From NCBI GenBank assembly GCA_003559395.1, contig PWLL01000037.1, positions 1 through 5,532 of the forward strand: a DNA stretch of 5,532 bases, in the 5' to 3' direction. The notes beneath the pieces are model-generated. The model did not search any database. It saw nothing but the letters and a program-made list of their open reading frames with translations, and had not been told where the DNA came from. Source of the DNA: Candidatus Iainarchaeum sp. Lineage in GTDB: Archaea > Iainarchaeota > Iainarchaeia > Iainarchaeales > CSSED10-239. Each line of letters begins with the position of its first letter. The stretch's first letter is position 1. Made by a program: the position numbers and the translations under genes. Shown piece by piece: positions 1 through 5,532 of this stretch.

Positions 1-170
1 ACGACCGCAACGCCCCGGGGTCTGGCGGACAGGGCGGCGGCGGCGACGGCGTCGTCATCGTCGCCTACGCGTACACCGAAGACACCGACGACCCGGCGAA
101 CCTGCAAGCGACGGTGGACGGGTCCGACGTGCACCTGACCTGGGACCCCTCACCGCTGGTGCCCGCATGA
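1..170 (+). CDS. 3' end of a glycine-rich minor tail-type protein (partial; the start lies upstream of the window)
   Basis: The frame is open from nt 3 to TGA 168-170. It translates to DRNAPGSGGQGGGGDGVVIVAYAYTEDTDDPANLQATVDGSDVHLTWDPSPLVPA*. A Gly run followed by DGVVIVAY is the C-terminal signature I associate with glycine-rich minor tail proteins of actinobacteriophages. The stop overlaps the next start (ATGA at 167-170). Confidence 0.7.
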   Translation, partial: DRNAPGSGGQGGGGDGVVIVAYAYTEDTDDPANLQATVDGSDVHLTWDPSPLVPA

Positions 171-511
171 GCTTAGACGTCCAGGTCGAGCACTGGTGGG
201 GTCATCTCCCACTTGAGATCTTCGATGGGCTCGATGGTCCATCGGGAGGGGTGACGCGCATCTATATCCGTCGTGGGGCCGAGACGATGATCCTGTCTGG
301 GTTCGACAACTACTGGATCGGTGGCGAAAGGTTCGGGCTCTTCAACGACGAAGAGAACTTCGACTGGTACGAGGGCGAACAATCGGCAGGGTGGTGTTGG
401 CCTGAAGGCAACAACCCTCGTCGTGACGATCTGCCGATCCCTGACGATGCGATCATGTGGCGTGGCGTGATGTTGCCTGACGATCAGGCGAAGGAAGTGG
501 GGCTGTTATGA
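167..511 (+). CDS. hypothetical Trp-rich 114-aa protein in the tail module
   Basis: This is the ORF given in the track. It has ATGA stop/start overlaps at both ends (167-170 and 508-511), which implies translational coupling with its neighbours. Its GC-rich codon usage matches the flanking genes. It has 7 Trp in 114 aa. I recognise no family. Confidence 0.7.
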   Translation: MSLDVQVEHWWGHLPLEIFDGLDGPSGGVTRIYIRRGAETMILSGFDNYWIGGERFGLFNDEENFDWYEGEQSAGWCWPEGNNPRRDDLPIPDDAIMWRGVMLPDDQAKEVGLL

Positions 512-3153
512 CCACCCGCTTCTTCTTCCAGAACACCTCCAATGAGCCTGGCACGGGGACCGACGAACCGCACGTCCGTGACCTTGCCGAAGCGCAAGGT
601 GATGCGGGGACGGTGTCGAACTCGGCGGGCAACACCTCTACCGACACGGAGGTGATGCGGTTCCAACGGCAGGTCGATGTCGAGGGCATCGAGAACATCG
701 CCGGGTCCATCCGGGTGACGGTGTTGACGGCCGACACGGCGTTCTCGCTGGAACTGCGACGCTACGACTCCAACGGCACGACCCTACTGGGGACGGGTGA
801 CAGGTCGCCTGAGTTCGACACGGTCGGGGTGCACACGTTCTCGCTGAACTCGTTGTCCCTGGACTGGCAAGAGGGCGACGTCCTTGCGATCACGGTCTAC
901 CACCGTCGTACGGGTGGACATGGCGGCAACGACTTCACGGTTGCGACCGGCGATGCGGATTCGTATGTAGATGTGAACGTGGTGGAGGCCGACCCGGTCG
1001 TTGAGGGCAGTGCTGATGATCTCGCCCCTTCAGCCATCGACGAAGTCGCGGGTTCGATCTCGGTCACAGGGTCAGCAACTGAACAAGCGCCTGTTGCTGA
1101 AGATCATGCTCAGGGCGACCTCATCGTCCCGCTTGAAGGGACGATCACTGATACAGCCCCAGTAGCCAGTGATCATGTCCAGGCTGAGGTAACGGTTGCG
1201 GCGACGGGAGAGGATCTCGCTTCCGCAGCTACCGACGAGGTTGCTGGATCGATAGAGATCACGGGGTCGATCGCCGATACAGCCCTTGCGGCAACCGATG
1301 AAGTTCAAGCTCAGGCCAGCGTCACTGGCTCTTCCCAGGACAGTGCTCCGTTAGCAACCGATCAGGTCTCGGGTTCGATCGGTGATGGGGTCGTCGGGTC
1401 CGCTACGGATGAAGCGCCATCGGCGAGTGACCATGCCGTCGGTGAGATCACTTCCACGATCACCTACTCCTCTGGTTCCAACGTCGTCACGGCGGAGATC
1501 GTTAGCGCTGTCGTCACAGGCGCGATCGATGACGCTGCTCCTGTTGCGAGCGATCACGCCGTAACTTCTTTCGCGGTAGACGCGACCGCTGAGGATCTCG
1601 CACCTGTTGCCACGGATCATGCACAGGTCGAGACCACGGTAGTTGTGACTGCCGATGATCTTGCGCCATCGGCGAGTGACCATGTCGAAAGCTCGATAGC
1701 TTCAGAGCCGGGTTCGATCACCGACATCGTGCCATCGGCGAGCGACCACGCTCAGGCCGAGATCACGGTCACGGCCTCAGCCGAGGATCAGGCTCCGAGT
1801 GCGACCGATCACGCAAGCCTCTCTCTGGCTCTTGAGGGTCAGGCGAGCGACGAGGCACTTGCAGCTCATGATCATGCTCAGGGGGAACTGAAGACTTCTG
1901 CTGCTGCGCAGGATGCTGCTGCCTCACCAACCGATCAGATCGAAGGCTCTACCGAGGTCGCGGGTCAGGCAGATGATGTCGCGGCTTCGCCTTCTGACCA
2001 TGTTGAAGGATCGTTCGAGGTTGCGGGTCAGATCGATGACGTTGCACCTTCGTCTTCCGACCATGTTGAAGGATCGGTTCAGGCTGAGCCAGGGACGATC
2101 GCAGATGTTGTTCCGGCTGCTGAGGATGTGGCAGAAGGATCGGCCACGGTCACGGGTACGGCTGATGACCTCGCCCCTTCGGCCACGGATGAGCTGACTG
2201 CAACCACTTCGGTTGTAGGGACGGCGAGCGATACATCCCTCGCAGCATCCGACGATGTGCTGGCAACGCTCATCGCGACTTCGACAGCGCACGATGTCGC
2301 GCCCCTTGCGAGTGACGCGCTCGAAGGAAGCCTCGGGGTCACAGGTCAGGTAGATGACCAGGCTCCTGTTGCACGAGATCATGTCCAGGCCGACATCCCG
2401 GCCGAGCCTGGGACGATCCACGACTTCGCTCCCTCCGTGCATGACGAGGCTCAGGCTCAGGTGAGCTTCTCGGGGAGCGCAGAAGATCTCGTCCCCGCAG
2501 CAAGTGACGAACTCCAGGTCCAGATCACCCTCGATGCTTCCCTGGATGACCAAGCCCCGGCTGCACACGATCAAGCTTCGGCTGAGACTCAGGTCACGGG
2601 GACGGGAGAGGATCAGGCTCTCGCTGCACAGGATCAGGCCGATGCCTCGATCACGGTCACCTCTACCACCGATGACCTCGCCCCTGTGGCGCATGACGAG
2701 GTCACGGGCACGATCACCGAGGCGACCACCGGCACGATCACCGACCAGGCTCCGTCGGCATCGGATCTCGCTCAGGCGGAACTTGCGGTCACTGCCAGCG
2801 TCTCCGACGAAGCGCCTGCGGCGTTCGACGAGATCGTCGGTGTCATACCAGCGATCGGTGACATCACCGACCTCGCTCCCGTGGCGTTCGACCACATCAC
2901 GGGCATCAGTGGTGAGATCCGAGCCATCAGGATCATCGTCGATGGTCCGGGTATCTCCAAGATCGTCCAGGGCGCGAACCGTGCGCAGTTCTTCACCCAC
3001 GGTCCTGGTCAGTCGCACCTCAGAGAGGGGATCGCGATCTCGTATGTGACCTCGGGGGTCGAGATCTCGGCGACTCATATCTTCGGACCAGGGGCATCTC
3101 GTAAGGTTGCGGGACCAGAGGGCTCACGCGTACCCACGGGTCCAGCGATTTAG
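508..3153 (+). CDS. 881-aa repeat-containing putative tail fibre or minor tail protein: N-terminal globular domain of about 168 aa, about 29 x 21-aa acidic repeats, and a 78-aa basic GPG-motif C-terminus
   Basis: It is the longest ORF in the window. An AAGGAAG Shine-Dalgarno sequence lies at 491-497, and the ATG at 508 overlaps the upstream stop. The repeat period of 63 nt is exactly 21 codons. Differences between repeat units are often synonymous, which argues for selection on this frame. It sits directly after a glycine-rich minor tail gene. The tail fibre function is inferred from position and architecture only. Confidence 0.88.
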   Translation: MTTRFFFQNTSNEPGTGTDEPHVRDLAEAQGDAGTVSNSAGNTSTDTEVMRFQRQVDVEGIENIAGSIRVTVLTADTAFSLELRRYDSNGTTLLGTGDRSPEFDTVGVHTFSLNSLSLDWQEGDVLAITVYHRRTGGHGGNDFTVATGDADSYVDVNVVEADPVVEGSADDLAPSAIDEVAGSISVTGSATEQAPVAEDHAQGDLIVPLEGTITDTAPVASDHVQAEVTVAATGEDLASAATDEVAGSIEITGSIADTALAATDEVQAQASVTGSSQDSAPLATDQVSGSIGDGVVGSATDEAPSASDHAVGEITSTITYSSGSNVVTAEIVSAVVTGAIDDAAPVASDHAVTSFAVDATAEDLAPVATDHAQVETTVVVTADDLAPSASDHVESSIASEPGSITDIVPSASDHAQAEITVTASAEDQAPSATDHASLSLALEGQASDEALAAHDHAQGELKTSAAAQDAAASPTDQIEGSTEVAGQADDVAASPSDHVEGSFEVAGQIDDVAPSSSDHVEGSVQAEPGTIADVVPAAEDVAEGSATVTGTADDLAPSATDELTATTSVVGTASDTSLAASDDVLATLIATSTAHDVAPLASDALEGSLGVTGQVDDQAPVARDHVQADIPAEPGTIHDFAPSVHDEAQAQVSFSGSAEDLVPAASDELQVQITLDASLDDQAPAAHDQASAETQVTGTGEDQALAAQDQADASITVTSTTDDLAPVAHDEVTGTITEATTGTITDQAPSASDLAQAELAVTASVSDEAPAAFDEIVGVIPAIGDITDLAPVAFDHITGISGEIRAIRIIVDGPGISKIVQGANRAQFFTHGPGQSHLREGIAISYVTSGVEISATHIFGPGASRKVAGPEGSRVPTGPAI
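1012..2916 (+). repeat. in-frame tandem array of about 29 degenerate 63-nt (21-codon) units inside the 881-aa CDS
   Basis: Residues 169-803 parse into units of 21 aa. A few are 22-23 aa, one is 41 aa and probably holds an extra degenerate unit, and the last is a partial 18-aa unit. The consensus is x-x-D-x-A-P-x-A-x-D-[HEQ]-[VA]-x-[GA]-x-[IV]-x-V-x-G-[ST]. Examples are ADDLAPSASDHVESSIASEPGS and ADDVAASPSDHVEGSFEVAGQ. Asp at unit position 10 is present in all 29 units. Asp at position 3 is present in 28 of 29. Confidence 0.9.
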
Positions 3154-3157
3154 GAGG
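3152..3157 (+). promoter_or_regulatory. Shine-Dalgarno sequence (AGGAGG) for the 113-aa ORF
   Basis: A perfect AGGAGG lies 4 nt upstream of ATG 3162. It overlaps the TAG stop (3151-3153) of the 881-aa gene. Confidence 0.8.
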
Positions 3158-3161
3158 CGAC

Positions 3162-3503
3162 ATGTCCATCACATTGCAGAGAGAGACGACCGAGTACGTC
3201 TACGTCGGGATCCAGGGCAGCACGGTCACCGGTGATGTCGAGATGGCGTTTCTCGAAGCTGGGCTGCGCCCGGACACCGTGGACTGGCACAGCTCGGTCA
3301 AGGTCGAGGACGACCAGAGCCCCCTCTGGGAGGATGCCCAGACTTCGGGGATCGATGGGGACTGGTTCGTCGCGTGTCTGGTCGGGGAGTTCGGCACCGG
3401 GGGCAAGGTGCTCACTCCCGGTGATTACCAGCCCTGGGTCAGGCTCACCGATGACGTCGAGCGACCGGTGCGTATCACCCCGGTCACGGTGGAGATCGCA
3501 TGA
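3162..3503 (+). CDS. hypothetical 113-aa small tail-module protein, predicted beta-rich
   Basis: This is the ORF in the track, with a strong AGGAGG ribosome-binding site and GC-rich codon usage. The pattern ...DW..S...(35 aa)...LTPGDYQPWVRLTDD..PVRI.PV.VEIA resembles small conserved proteins I recall downstream of minor tail genes in actinophages. That recollection is unverified. Confidence 0.8.
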   Translation: MSITLQRETTEYVYVGIQGSTVTGDVEMAFLEAGLRPDTVDWHSSVKVEDDQSPLWEDAQTSGIDGDWFVACLVGEFGTGGKVLTPGDYQPWVRLTDDVERPVRITPVTVEIA

Positions 3504-3530
3504 TCCCTGAAAGGAAGATCGCATGATCCC
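3493..3530 (+). repeat. exact 15-nt direct repeat AGATCGCATGATCCC (3493-3507 and 3516-3530), offset 23 nt, spanning a gene junction
   Basis: Read directly from the sequence. Copy 1 contains the TGA stop of the 113-aa ORF together with an overlapping ATG. Copy 2 contains the ATG of the 71-aa ORF together with an overlapping TGA. Confidence 0.9.
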
Positions 3531-3738
3531 GTGGTTGAGGGTCCCCTATGTTCATGATCCTGCGGATCTCTCATCGATCCACATGGCCGTGGTCACCAAG
3601 GAGATCGAGGAATCCGACTGGAGACCCGCGTACCGGGATACGGTCAAGGGTCAGAAGTACGTTCAGGTCAGGCACACGCTCAAGAAAGGGGAGCAGGTAT
3701 GGATCCGCGACTCGAACGGGATCCGACGAGCCATCTGA
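3523..3738 (+). CDS. hypothetical 71-aa protein, possibly a shortened paralog of the preceding 113-aa ORF
   Basis: This is the ORF in the track. A GAAAGGAAG Shine-Dalgarno sequence lies at 3509-3517, 5 nt before the ATG. It shares motifs with the upstream ORF: [VI]-x-M-A-[FV]..., DW[HR], and L-x-x-G-[DE]-x-(x)-W-[VI]-R. It is short, so the coding call is less certain. Confidence 0.6.
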   Translation: MIPWLRVPYVHDPADLSSIHMAVVTKEIEESDWRPAYRDTVKGQKYVQVRHTLKKGEQVWIRDSNGIRRAI

Positions 3739-3787
3739 CTCCGATGAGTTGTGGACGTGACCTGACAGACGCGCGACCATCGGATAA

Positions 3788-3852
3788 CGCGGCCCCCCGG
3801 TGCCTTCCCAGGTTCCTTCCCCTGATCTGGTTCTCCTCGCCGGGGGGTCGCG
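3788..3852 (+). terminator. GC-rich stem-loop at the module boundary; a non-canonical terminator or regulatory structure
   Basis: Positions 3788-3800 (CGCGGCCCCCCGG) pair with 3840-3852 (CCGGGGGGTCGCG). That gives 13 pairs including one G-U, and two more pairs are possible inward. The loop is about 35-39 nt and pyrimidine-rich. No U-tract follows, so this is not a canonical intrinsic terminator. It lies in the only sizeable intergenic gap (3739-3875), exactly where base composition changes. Confidence 0.35.
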
Positions 3853-3875
3853 CATGACTTCGGGGAGTTGATCTG

Positions 3876-5507
3876 ATGACGATCGATTTCACGCCCGAGG
3901 CAGGACCGAACTATGACGTGTTGGGTCGTGTCGTAACTGTGAATGTTCCGGGAGCTGAGATACTTGCTTCCGAACATGGTGTCGAATGGGCTCTTCGTGG
4001 CGCTACCACGATCGGACTCTCGTTTGGTAATGGGTATCACGGTGTTCTTTGGTTGGACCCCGGTAATGGGCAGGATGCTCAACTTTTCGTTCAAGTTGCT
4101 CGTTTAGATGACACAGGGAAGTTCGTCGATGGTGATTATGCAGTCTTCGATCATACTCATTTCTTCACCAAACTTGTTGATGGCTACCATGATGCGCGAA
4201 TAAATATCGAGGGGCATGAGAATATAGGGTATCCGTTCTTCAAGATCGTAGAACCTGGGAAGGTTCTTGTCGTTGCGAACATCTATGTTTCTAGCGATGA
4301 ACCTGGCTATGGCTCACAATTTAGGGTAGTGACGACTGCGATGGTGGTGTCGTACAGTGGTGGCAGCATCACGGTTGATTTCACTGAAACCTTCGATACG
4401 TACAACAACCCTATGAATCTCAGTGAGACAACATTTTCGTCATGGTTGGCCCAGACCAAACCTATCACTGCTGCTGTTGCATACAAAGATGGGATGTTGA
4501 ACCGCGTCGTTTATAGTCATGGTGGTTCGACGGAGCAGAGGGTCATCATCGTCGCGCAGTACATCGAGTATTCCAACGGGGTCATCGTCGCTCATGCTCC
4601 TTATATCATGCATGATTCCGATGACCTTCCAGAGGTCACGGCAGATCCATCAGCTTGGCTGGGTGCCACATCTGTCGAGATCGATGGCAAAGCGTTCATC
4701 TTCGACGCTATCAGCACAAGTACCGTCCATCCCATGGGGTATTACATCAATGTCTGTGATGAGAACTCGTTGATCGCGCAGCTCAATGTCAATGACCATA
4801 TCAGTCATACAGACTTGTTCAACTTCTGGGGAGCGGAAGAACTCAAGATCGGCAGATTGAAGAATGGCAACATCATCGTGGCGAAGATCGACGTGCGATA
4901 TTACCCCTATGTCTGGGACGTCATAGAAGTAGCGTATGACGGAACGAATCTCAGTGTTGTGAGTTCGACATCAGCCGAGATGTCAAGGTGGCTGTGCGGA
5001 TTCATCGAGTATGAAGACACGGTTGGGTTCTATGGACAGAATTGGGGTAACGAGAGTGTTAGTGGGCAAGAAGCCATCGATTATCATGAGCAGTTCGGAT
5101 TGCCTAATCATGATGAATCTGACGTGTTTACTATCACCATCACTGATGTCACGAGTGCGACTCCAGAGGGAGTGGTTGCACGAGATTATGAGATACCTTT
5201 CAGTTGGCATTATGATTACGGATATAGACTTGTGCAGGAACATCCTTTCACCCATTCCTACTTAGAGAACGGGATGCTCATCTCGATCGGATTGGTGGAT
5301 CCTACAGCAGTATTTAGCTGGGAGGCAGGTGATGTGAGTGGCCTTTCGGGTTGGACGATGCCACTTATCACTGATGATGTGGTCCCTAGTCTCCGCCTCA
5401 TCCAGCGGGACGATGACAACGAGTTCGGTTCCTCACGGATCGAACGGGTCCAGGTATCTTCAGCTCAGAAGAGCGGGAGGATCCCTGGTCCGAACGCCTA
5501 CTGGTGA
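3876..5507 (+). CDS. hypothetical 543-aa acidic, aromatic-rich protein that is compositionally foreign (low GC); candidate distal tail or receptor-binding protein, or a moron
   Basis: It is a 1632-nt open frame in DNA of about 40-50% GC, where stops would be frequent by chance. GGGGAG at 3862-3867 lies 8 nt before the ATG. The alternative-frame ORFs here are short. I recognised no catalytic or nucleotide-binding motif and no signal peptide or transmembrane segment. Confidence 0.85.
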   Translation: MTIDFTPEAGPNYDVLGRVVTVNVPGAEILASEHGVEWALRGATTIGLSFGNGYHGVLWLDPGNGQDAQLFVQVARLDDTGKFVDGDYAVFDHTHFFTKLVDGYHDARINIEGHENIGYPFFKIVEPGKVLVVANIYVSSDEPGYGSQFRVVTTAMVVSYSGGSITVDFTETFDTYNNPMNLSETTFSSWLAQTKPITAAVAYKDGMLNRVVYSHGGSTEQRVIIVAQYIEYSNGVIVAHAPYIMHDSDDLPEVTADPSAWLGATSVEIDGKAFIFDAISTSTVHPMGYYINVCDENSLIAQLNVNDHISHTDLFNFWGAEELKIGRLKNGNIIVAKIDVRYYPYVWDVIEVAYDGTNLSVVSSTSAEMSRWLCGFIEYEDTVGFYGQNWGNESVSGQEAIDYHEQFGLPNHDESDVFTITITDVTSATPEGVVARDYEIPFSWHYDYGYRLVQEHPFTHSYLENGMLISIGLVDPTAVFSWEAGDVSGLSGWTMPLITDDVVPSLRLIQRDDDNEFGSSRIERVQVSSAQKSGRIPGPNAYW

Positions 5508-5521
5508 GAAGAGTTCAGGAC

Positions 5522-5532
5522 ATGAACGATCA
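5522..5532 (+). CDS. possible 5' end of the next gene (ATG AAC GAT CA...)
   Basis: An ATG lies 14 nt after the TGA at 5505-5507. It is preceded by purine-rich GAGAAGAG (5506-5513) with an 8-nt spacer. Only 11 nt are visible. Confidence 0.2.

Follow-up and report, generated by a model that had tools for sequence, protein, structure and literature searches.

In the receptor-binding proteins and fibres of phages, those of the T7 type included, it is usually the N-terminus that forms a conserved anchor, and the tip at the C-terminus that varies. Endosialidases are attached via N-terminal domains, and their C-terminal intramolecular chaperone is cleaved off. C-terminal segments serve for binding or loading in T4 Hoc, which has a C-terminal capsid-binding domain, and in encapsulins, which employ C-terminal cargo-loading peptides. 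The subject of this report is open reading frame (ORF) E, located near the 3′ end of a 5,532-nt stretch of DNA (contig PWLL01000037.1 of GenBank assembly GCA_003559395.1, Candidatus Iainarchaeum sp.) that is referred to here as the window. ORF E lies in a slot that is occupied by unrelated genes in close relatives of the window, and the proteins encoded there have only a C-terminal tail of ~41 amino acids (aa) in common.

Host-recognition genes dominate the hypervariable islands of co-occurring environmental phages, known as metaviromic islands (Mizuno et al. 2014; PMC3909814). The variable genes of these islands show an enrichment of functions in carbohydrate binding and receptor binding and of lectin-like and tail-fibre functions, and the fibres described there are constant at the N-terminus and vary at the C-terminus (PMC3909814). 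The present locus resembles such islands in that near-identical backbones from one habitat differ at a single locus where unrelated genes interchange, with slot flanks that are 97–100% identical. It differs in that the body of the slot protein is replaced whole by different propeller families and a short C-terminal tail remains constant. It is also unlike them in lying directly before the gene for the large terminase subunit (TerL) and in showing a consistent deficit in guanine-plus-cytosine (GC) content.

Alternative host-recognition proteins with one constant part are also produced by the Gin system of phage Mu, the Cin system of phage P1, shufflons, the int1 inversion of phiCh1, and diversity-generating retroelements (DGRs). 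There, the constant part lies at the N-terminus, all alternatives are carried by one genome, and the gene for a recombinase or reverse transcriptase is adjacent. In contrast, the alternatives at the slot are alleles in different genomes, and it is the N-terminal body that varies. A DGR, an invertible segment and a shufflon were each considered and rejected, as there are no inverted repeats or template/variable repeats (TR/VR) at ORF E and no such enzyme in the available flanks. An integron-type cassette, which would end in an attC-like hairpin, was likewise rejected, since a locus has a single copy of the hairpin described below, placed before the slot in some cases and after it in others, and the available flanks encode no integrase.

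Allelic replacement at a slot upstream of the terminase gene

Related loci have a common gene order. Large Gly-rich or fibre-like proteins are followed by a 102–113-aa gene resembling ORF C of the window, a 71–73-aa gene, and the tail-bearing slot gene. Thereafter come a spacer, an optional 62-aa Cys/His-rich gene, a 471-aa TerL, a portal gene, and genes for head morphogenesis and proteases. Contigs with near-identical flanks yielded at least seven unrelated slot genes, namely RCC1-like, PQQ-like and Asp-box-like genes and members of the ORF E family, all with the same tail of ~41 aa. For instance, the body of P0008 matches RCC1/WD40_RLD, that of P0007 matches PQQ_2 (E = 8.8e-5), and that of P0011 is PQQ_2-like, while P0009 is called Asp-box-like from S-x-D-x(3)-W repeats recognized by reading the sequence alone. 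Each classifiable slot body is a beta-propeller, and the propellers come from unrelated families. Proteins with unrelated bodies of 293–479 aa (P0007, P0008, P0009, P0011 and P0012) share only their last ~41 residues, at 89–95% identity.

The 5′ flank up to position 3856 is 97.6–99.8% identical in L018–L024, and homology to the window stops exactly at 3856 in L018, L019, L023 and L024. Locus L019 carries the window’s ORFs C and D (97–99% DNA identity) followed by an unrelated 455-aa slot gene with a variant tail, and the identical ORF D protein is found on eight contigs with differing downstream genes. In L001, a 72-aa gene of the L015 type is joined to an ORF E cassette that is 99.8% identical to that of the window. 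The switch to window-type sequence occurs there at 3808, within the hairpin loop and no more than ~4 nt from the stop codon of the 72-aa gene. The gene order is also the same in L014 and L015, where the slot gene has 372 aa. From the L001 and L019 junctions, it follows that the ORF E cassette is found behind two different neighbours, and that each neighbour is found with two different cassettes. The suggestion in an initial annotation of the window that ORF E is horizontally swapped is thus borne out.

At the 3′ side, a block common to other loci starts at 5383–5401 and runs to the end of the window, with 88–100% identity in loci with unrelated bodies. In the alignment, the shared region takes in the codons of the tail, the stop and, after it, a 118-nt spacer extending as far as the next gene’s ATG. 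The initial annotation had offered, as one of two options, a foreign core between resident ends of intermediate GC. That picture holds for the 3′ end, as the tail and all that follows it are common to other loci, and fails for the 5′ end, where homology ends before the start codon, at 3856 or 3808.

Alternative alleles are also found within the same community. Assembly ERZ27301261 holds P0002, P0005, P0008, P0009, P0010 and the L019 gene, and ERZ27301263 holds P0001, P0005, P0006 and P0007, so that at least five alternative slot genes are present in one sample. Near-identical flanks on both sides with unrelated genes in between, together with the co-occurrence of the alternatives, are among the marks of a hypervariable allelic cassette locus.

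Many contigs, the window included, end at the borders of the slot, either at 3856 or 18–130 nt 3′ of the stop codon. Contig ends that lie at or near the breakpoints could be taken as a sign of an artefact in which a low-GC gene was joined to a high-GC flank by chimeric assembly. Their clustering at block borders is attributed to branching of the assembly graph in a polymorphic population. Independent contigs extend across both junctions, which excludes a chimera. L021 (Logan SRR7083934) covers window positions 3385–5430 at 99.85% identity and L022 (JGI SL_3KL_010_SED) covers 2723–3934 at 99.75%, each crossing the ORF D–ORF E junction, and L001 (ENA) covers 3808–5532 at 99.8%. An assembly artefact is accordingly so improbable as to be negligible.

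The tail has the consensus PSLRLxQRDDDNEFGSSRIERVQVSSAQKSGRIPGPNAYW and is common to P0005–P0009, P0011 and P0012, which differ in their bodies. Among loci, 22 of its 41 codons are variable and four of these alter the residue, with synonymous differences concentrated in the 5′ half. Pairs of tails differ by up to 15–16 synonymous versus four non-synonymous codons. Such mostly synonymous variation is read as purifying selection on the peptide, with crossovers inside the tail. In more diverged variants, LRL-x-(Q/R)R at the start and (T/A)Y(W/F) at the end are retained, and these variants accompany TerL genes of 62–87% identity. The tail is taken to belong to the backbone, its divergence keeping pace with that of TerL.

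Base composition of the slot

The initial annotation called attention to an abrupt drop in GC at ORF E, for which it gave the correct coordinates and length (Table 1), and all thirteen of the 60-nt GC values it quoted were reproduced exactly. The drop is real. The maximum-likelihood GC changepoint falls at 3866–3909 with a log-likelihood ratio of 37.8; the ratio averaged 3.2 over 300 block shuffles and never exceeded 10.2. In 200-nt windows, GC is 0.618 ± 0.031 upstream (minimum 0.575) and 0.491 ± 0.042 in the ORF E body (maximum 0.550), a mean difference of 12.7 points. The annotated figure of “about 20 points” is therefore right for the local extremes (65–67% falling to 40–43%) and too high for the mean. 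GC is lower in ORF E at every codon position, and at third positions (GC3) it amounts to 0.54 versus 0.64–0.83 in ORFs A–D. Since all three positions are affected, the drop is not only an amino-acid effect. The body alone (3876–5381) has a GC of 0.485 and a GC3 of 0.525. The tail-coding segment has a GC of 0.60, and this rise at the 3′ end of ORF E coincides with the common block that begins at 5383–5401. At the opposite end of the window, segment 1–166 has a GC of 73%.

Comparable values are found throughout the slot. The bodies of eight slot genes have a GC of 0.47–0.54 and a GC3 of 0.45–0.68, as against 0.57–0.70 and 0.61–0.89 for backbone genes, and the slot gene of L033 has a GC of 0.46; with further loci included, slot bodies span 0.45–0.54. 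None of 1318 windows of 500 nt, drawn from ~70 kb of related backbone, fell below 0.52 GC, and all slot windows were at or below 0.52 with the sole exception of L041, where P0003 is at 0.565.

The initial annotation considered that a core segment might have been imported recently from a donor of much lower GC into resident ends, and not yet been ameliorated. The coincidence of the GC and GC3 drop with the homology breakpoint, the resident 3′ end, and the existence of distant TerL relatives of lower GC (0.53 in L034 and L035, 0.35 in L032) are all compatible with such an import. The GC3 of P0003, 0.70, is the sole hint of a rise with residence time in the ORF E family, which import and subsequent amelioration would produce. 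When 1.84 billion representative proteins were searched exhaustively with HMMER, without a word index, 12 matches only were returned, and each bears the tail in some form. P0002–P0006 and P0010 are related to ORF E over its full length, at 23–43% identity, and form a seven-sequence alignment with it. Megablast and tblastn searches of phage records gave no match to ORF E. A homolog search with full-length ORF E, and one with the family alignment, returned only ORF E itself, and viral contigs searched with ORF E and ORF C contained no related locus. Overall, no donor outside the clade was found among the representative proteins, phage records, viral contigs and reference genomes.

In addition, the family members at 23–43% identity all lie in the same slot and all bear the tail, which points to long residence, and the 5′ end of ORF E is not resident. 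The annotation had itself named homologs of the same composition as evidence against a recent acquisition, and such homologs exist. The 43%-identical homolog in L006 has a GC of 0.487 and P0010 a GC of 0.485, both as low as ORF E, and unrelated slot genes are equally GC-poor; the deficit is therefore slot-specific and old. A recent import is thus distinctly improbable. Low GC is a long-standing property of the genes in the slot and not a sign of recent arrival.

More generally, an abrupt fall in the GC of a phage gene is not necessarily a sign of recent import, and in the present case it is a stable trait of a hypervariable slot. Possible causes are a pool of cassettes that has a composition of its own, a relaxation of codon selection, or exclusion from homologous recombination and from GC-biased gene conversion. 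The locus makes these causes testable against one another.

Predicted fold and function of the slot proteins

ORF E matched no family in Pfam, PHROGs, NCBIfam or PADLOC, and a search of the Protein Data Bank (PDB) with the profile of its family gave no match. As the initial annotation described, the protein is acidic and rich in Tyr, Trp, Phe, Asn and Ile, with contents of these residues above those of the large neighbouring ORF B. Its annotated beta-rich look agrees with an AlphaFold2 model built on the seven-sequence alignment, which is all-beta, with ~29 strands in roughly seven four-stranded units, and in which residues 500–543 are disordered. The model has a predicted template modelling score (pTM) of 0.74 and a mean predicted local distance difference test (pLDDT) of 65, with 239 residues at pLDDT ≥ 70. 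A model from the single sequence was discarded (pLDDT 34).

Foldseek matches of the model include seven-bladed polysaccharide lyases of PL24 (ulvan lyase 6byt, E = 5e-9), PL42 and PL25, as well as phage endosialidases (4hiz, 3ju4), among them that of phi92 (E = 5e-7), and a phage endosialidase propeller in BFVD. Further matches are fucose lectins of Photorhabdus and uncharacterized proteins of Caudovirales. Low template modelling (TM) scores and identities of 8–11% mean that these matches support the fold class alone. ORF E is thus predicted to be a beta-propeller of ~7 blades, in a fold class resembling polysaccharide lyases, phage endosialidases and lectins. The initial annotation had also taken two pairs of similar motifs as hints of repeated domains. 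The motif pairs are not significant as sequence repeats (44 and 189 of 1000 shuffles score as well), although the predicted fold does consist of repeated four-stranded units, and the motifs probably reflect recurring propeller blades. Apart from short matches consistent with chance, no repeats involve ORF E. One such match is a 23-nt inverted repeat, 83% complementary, between 1121–1143 in ORF B and 5394–5416 at the start of the tail-coding region, which is probably due to chance.

A receptor- or glycan-binding role of ORF E is plausible in light of the modelled fold. We judge it somewhat more likely than not that ORF E encodes a host-recognition propeller that binds or cleaves glycans, is mounted via its tail on a partner encoded by the backbone, and is swapped between co-occurring lineages by recombination in the flanks. 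ORF E would then be one of the alleles at a hypervariable slot that has fibre-like structural genes on one side and TerL on the other. The slot protein would have two parts, a propeller body that can be replaced wholesale and a C-terminal tail that belongs to the backbone. The body would serve as a host-surface recognition module, probably glycan-binding or glycan-cleaving. The tail would act as a docking peptide that fixes the current propeller to its backbone-encoded partner, most likely on the virion. Bodies would be exchanged by recombination between co-occurring phage lineages, with a 3′ crossover in the common block of tail, spacer and TerL and a 5′ crossover at or just before the start codon, often at the end of the conserved hairpin spacer. 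The data establish the replacement of alleles, the conservation of the tail and selection on it, the GC deficit specific to the slot, and the fold class; display on the virion, recognition of glycans and docking by the tail are each inferred.

The position of ORF E after fibre-like structural genes is consistent with this assignment. Among modular receptor-binding proteins and depolymerases with beta-propeller heads, such as the endosialidases of K1F and phi92 (PDB 4hiz, 3ju4), ORF E finds parallels in its predicted propeller, in the location of its gene after fibre-like genes, and in its modular exchange. It has no sequence similarity to them (identities of 8–11%), and the TM-scores are only 0.3–0.4. 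Moreover, unlike the endosialidase chaperone, the tail of ORF E has no match to Peptidase_S74 or any other Pfam family.

Several points weigh against a host-recognition role. Conservation is confined to the C-terminal end (the last ~41 residues) and variation to the ~500 residues before it, which is opposite to the common layout of fibres and receptor-binding proteins. The Foldseek matches have TM-scores of 0.35–0.44, identities of 8–11% and root-mean-square deviations of 11–14 Å, for a model with a pLDDT of 65. The tail has no Pfam match at E ≤ 10 save a spurious one (E = 0.1), known C-terminal sorting or anchor domains such as T9SS CTD or the Peptidase_S74 chaperone included, and its profile has no PDB match at E ≤ 10. 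Many phages encode morons or the small terminase where the slot sits. L027, with a TerL of 79% identity, has no slot gene, which implies that an ORF E-type gene may be dispensable. P0003, a member of the ORF E family in L041, has a GC of 0.563, near the backbone level. Finally, the label “tail module” for the upstream genes rests on weak PHROG matches, and ORF B matches nothing.

ORF E could alternatively be a moron or accessory gene, a type of dispensable and non-structural cargo such as a secreted or host-modifying enzyme or a superinfection exclusion factor, for which the tail would be a targeting, secretion or regulatory peptide. The atypical composition and the presence/absence polymorphism (L027) are among the marks of morons. 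The gene also lies immediately 5′ of TerL with its own short leader, and a strong hairpin separates it from its neighbours. However, it is on the same strand as the structural genes and closely behind them, and it matches no defence system or NCBIfam model. Signals for sigma-70 promoters and intrinsic terminators at the slot borders were not above chance in a scan that may not suit this host, and the hairpin has no U-tract. By eye only, no signal peptide was seen. Consistent propeller bodies joined to a strictly conserved, backbone-linked tail would suit a structural adaptor better. A moron is on these grounds unlikely.

Rather improbable is a further alternative, that the slot encodes a capsid-associated display or cargo protein, with the tail as a capsid-binding or targeting peptide and the propellers as decoration, adhesion or packaged proteins. 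By analogy, T4 Hoc and the encapsulin peptides resemble the slot proteins in placing a short, conserved C-terminal segment on diverse domains, a segment that seemingly belongs to the particle or backbone and not to the passenger. The tail of the slot proteins is indeed short, C-terminal and predicted to be disordered on its own (AlphaFold2 model), and the gene abuts the head module. The tail type also follows the TerL or head side, as seen in L019, which has the window’s upstream genes (97.6%) with another tail type and a TerL variant. Plain linkage would equally give such co-variation of tail and TerL. In addition, searches of Pfam and the PDB showed no similarity of the tail to known capsid-binding peptides, and membership in the group of T4 Hoc or of the encapsulin peptides cannot be claimed. 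Searches with the tail peptide in viral contigs and reference genomes returned nothing.

If the mechanism proposed above is correct, the tail would represent a minimal transferable adaptor that attaches structurally unrelated propellers to the phage particle. This would offer insight into the diversification of host range in extreme environments, and possibly a module for the engineering of receptor binding. A low-GC gene behind fibre genes is by itself ordinary. What is unusual is a conserved tail on unrelated propellers at a fixed pre-terminase slot, replacement exclusively by propellers, and borders marked by hairpins. A more far-reaching form of the proposal is that the locus represents a plug-and-play display system not described before. 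The ~41-aa docking peptide, absent from Pfam, PHROGs and the PDB, would mount any of many unrelated propellers. Whole bodies would be exchanged at the fixed pre-terminase slot with reversed polarity and from a low-GC pool, using the tail and hairpin spacer as a recombination handle. We regard this form as possible, and put it forward tentatively.

Spacers, neighbouring genes and probable host

The features of the window are compiled in Table 1.

Table 1. Features of the 5,532-nt window and their positions.
Feature	Positions	Strand	Description
3′ end of glycine-rich-domain structural gene (...GGQGGGGDGVVIVAYAYTED...LTWDPSPLVPA*)	1–166	+	Mosaic relative to L018 and L014
ORF B	508–3153	+	881 aa, pI 4.05, 0.3% Lys, no Cys; fibre-like look
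ORF C	3162–3503	+	113 aa, conserved backbone gene; syntenic homologs of 31–34% identity in L014, L015 and L041
ORF D	3523–3738	+	71 aa, pI 9.5; last backbone gene before the slot
Upstream 118-nt spacer with two-tier hairpin	3739–3856	+	Ends in ATG 3854–3856; diverged copy of the pre-TerL spacer
Cassette-specific leader	3857–3875	+	GGGGAG motif ~9 nt 5′ of the ORF E start
ORF E	3876–5507	+	543 aa, pI 4.43
ORF E body, residues 1–502	3876–5381	+	Exchangeable part, low GC, predicted beta-propeller of ~7 blades
Conserved tail, residues 503–543 (VPSLRLIQRDDDNEFGSSRIERVQVSSAQKSGRIPGPNAYW), and stop codon	5382–5507	+	88–100% DNA identity with genes of unrelated body
First 25 nt of the conserved 118-nt downstream spacer	5508–5532	+	Window ends inside the block

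The start codon of ORF E is supported by the N-terminal alignment with P0002. The ATG at 3854 that closes the hairpin spacer begins an upstream ORF of five codons (MTSGS*), with its stop at 3869–3871, just 5′ of ORF E. The equivalent ATG in L019 shares the reading frame of the slot ORF, for which it may be the actual start codon.

A 118-nt spacer with a hairpin follows the slot gene in most loci of the commonest tail type. In loci that extend beyond the portion seen in the window, the downstream spacer continues to the hairpin and then to the start codon of TerL or of the optional 62-aa gene, with 0–1 mismatches among L002, L003, L005, L013 and L014. The upstream and downstream spacers align over ~65 nt with a score of 34, as compared with 16.3 ± 2.8 for shuffles. 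Each folds as a hairpin in two tiers, with −41 to −42 kcal/mol and a z of about −3.7, whose end lies 2–3 nt before an ATG. The 15-bp outer helix (3788–3802 with 3838–3852) is paired in 100% of cells across four variants, and five pairs are changed on both sides; in slid controls, 40–60% of cells pair and no two-sided changes occur. G·U pairs are found on the + strand only, which favours a structure in sense-strand RNA or single-stranded DNA.

Copies of the hairpin (~65 nt, window 3788–3852) are present at L002:444–500, L041:~4915–4982 and elsewhere. It is found once per locus, on either side of the slot. The ATG that it precedes lies in the slot gene region in some loci, and in others it is that of TerL or of the 62-aa gene. 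In L019, L033 and L006, the hairpin is absent after the cassette. A role as an obligatory recombination site bracketing the cassette was rejected, as the hairpin occupies only one side of the slot in most loci. It is treated here as a regulatory or RNA-stability element that also provides homology at the slot border. No Rfam family covers the hairpin, nor did Rfam match any other part of the window, L002 or L015. The right arm of the hairpin includes a Shine–Dalgarno-like GGGGGT that would be sequestered in the stem. In L042 (1665–1808), the spacer after P0010, which has a type-3 tail, has no common hairpin and instead carries another inverted repeat, GACATGACGAGACCACGA ... TCGTGGTTGGTCTGTCATC, right after the stop codon.

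The upstream neighbours of ORF E are structural or fibre-like, with none a securely identified tail protein, and its downstream neighbour is TerL. The initial annotation’s placement of ORF E at the end of a tail module is plausible and is counted as unsupported, the matches being weak or indirect. The 702-aa protein of L014 that is related to the gene at 1–166 is similar to phrog_2295 (E = 3.6e-43) and, more weakly, to phrog_863, tail fiber assembly (E = 1.4e-5), and an upstream gene in a related locus matches phrog_3758, a virion structural protein (E = 2.4e-23). The gene at 1–166 has a second mosaic breakpoint near 88, as positions 1–87 agree at 95–100% with an internal part of the 702-aa gene in L014 and L015, whereas L018 matches only from 89. 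ORF B, which matched no family, contains ~30 units of a 63-nt (21-aa) periodic repeat between 1024 and 2880, with a consensus of roughly D-x-A-P-x-A-x-D-H-x-Q-x-x-x-x-V-T-G. On the downstream side, the 471-aa protein was identified as TerL by its match to phrog_2 (E = 2.3e-6) and the portal by phrog_113 (E = 1.8e-80).

The contigs with slot proteins derive from metagenomes of soda lakes, a habitat with hypersaline sediments (PMC6146748). A TerL relative of 71% identity lies on a 4.2-kb contig binned to a metagenome-assembled genome of a soda-lake member of the Bacteroidetes, and relatives of 46–47% identity lie in megabase-scale contigs of Ca. Marinacidobacterales. The best matches of TerL among cultured phages are 22–28% identical. 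The clade would thus appear to consist of uncultured tailed bacteriophages of hypersaline soda lakes, with the bacterial host suggested by the binned 4.2-kb contig and by distant prophages. Very acidic, Lys-poor proteins make a “salt-in” halophilic bacterium the probable host. A haloarchaeal virus was first suspected from acidic proteins at ~60% GC, and is disfavoured given the TerL relatives in bacterial assemblies.

The 62-aa Cys/His-rich gene (MRHDDHYRNLPW...CRCELKSGHDGDH...) lies between the hairpin spacer and TerL in L002 (508–696), L005, L014 and L015, and is absent from L013, L003, L019 and L041. It overlaps the TerL start (ATGA), matches no family, and may encode a small zinc-binding or HNH-like protein. 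The clade has no recognizable small terminase gene 5′ of TerL, and the slot gene sits in its usual place. In L027 (1180–1595), a 103-aa gene resembling ORF C stands directly before TerL, without ORF D or a slot gene. In L006 (1775–1978), the P0002 slot gene, which has a type-4 tail, is followed not by TerL but by a gene for a 67-aa hydrophobic protein that is perhaps membrane-spanning or holin-like. The right neighbour of the slot is therefore not always the terminase.

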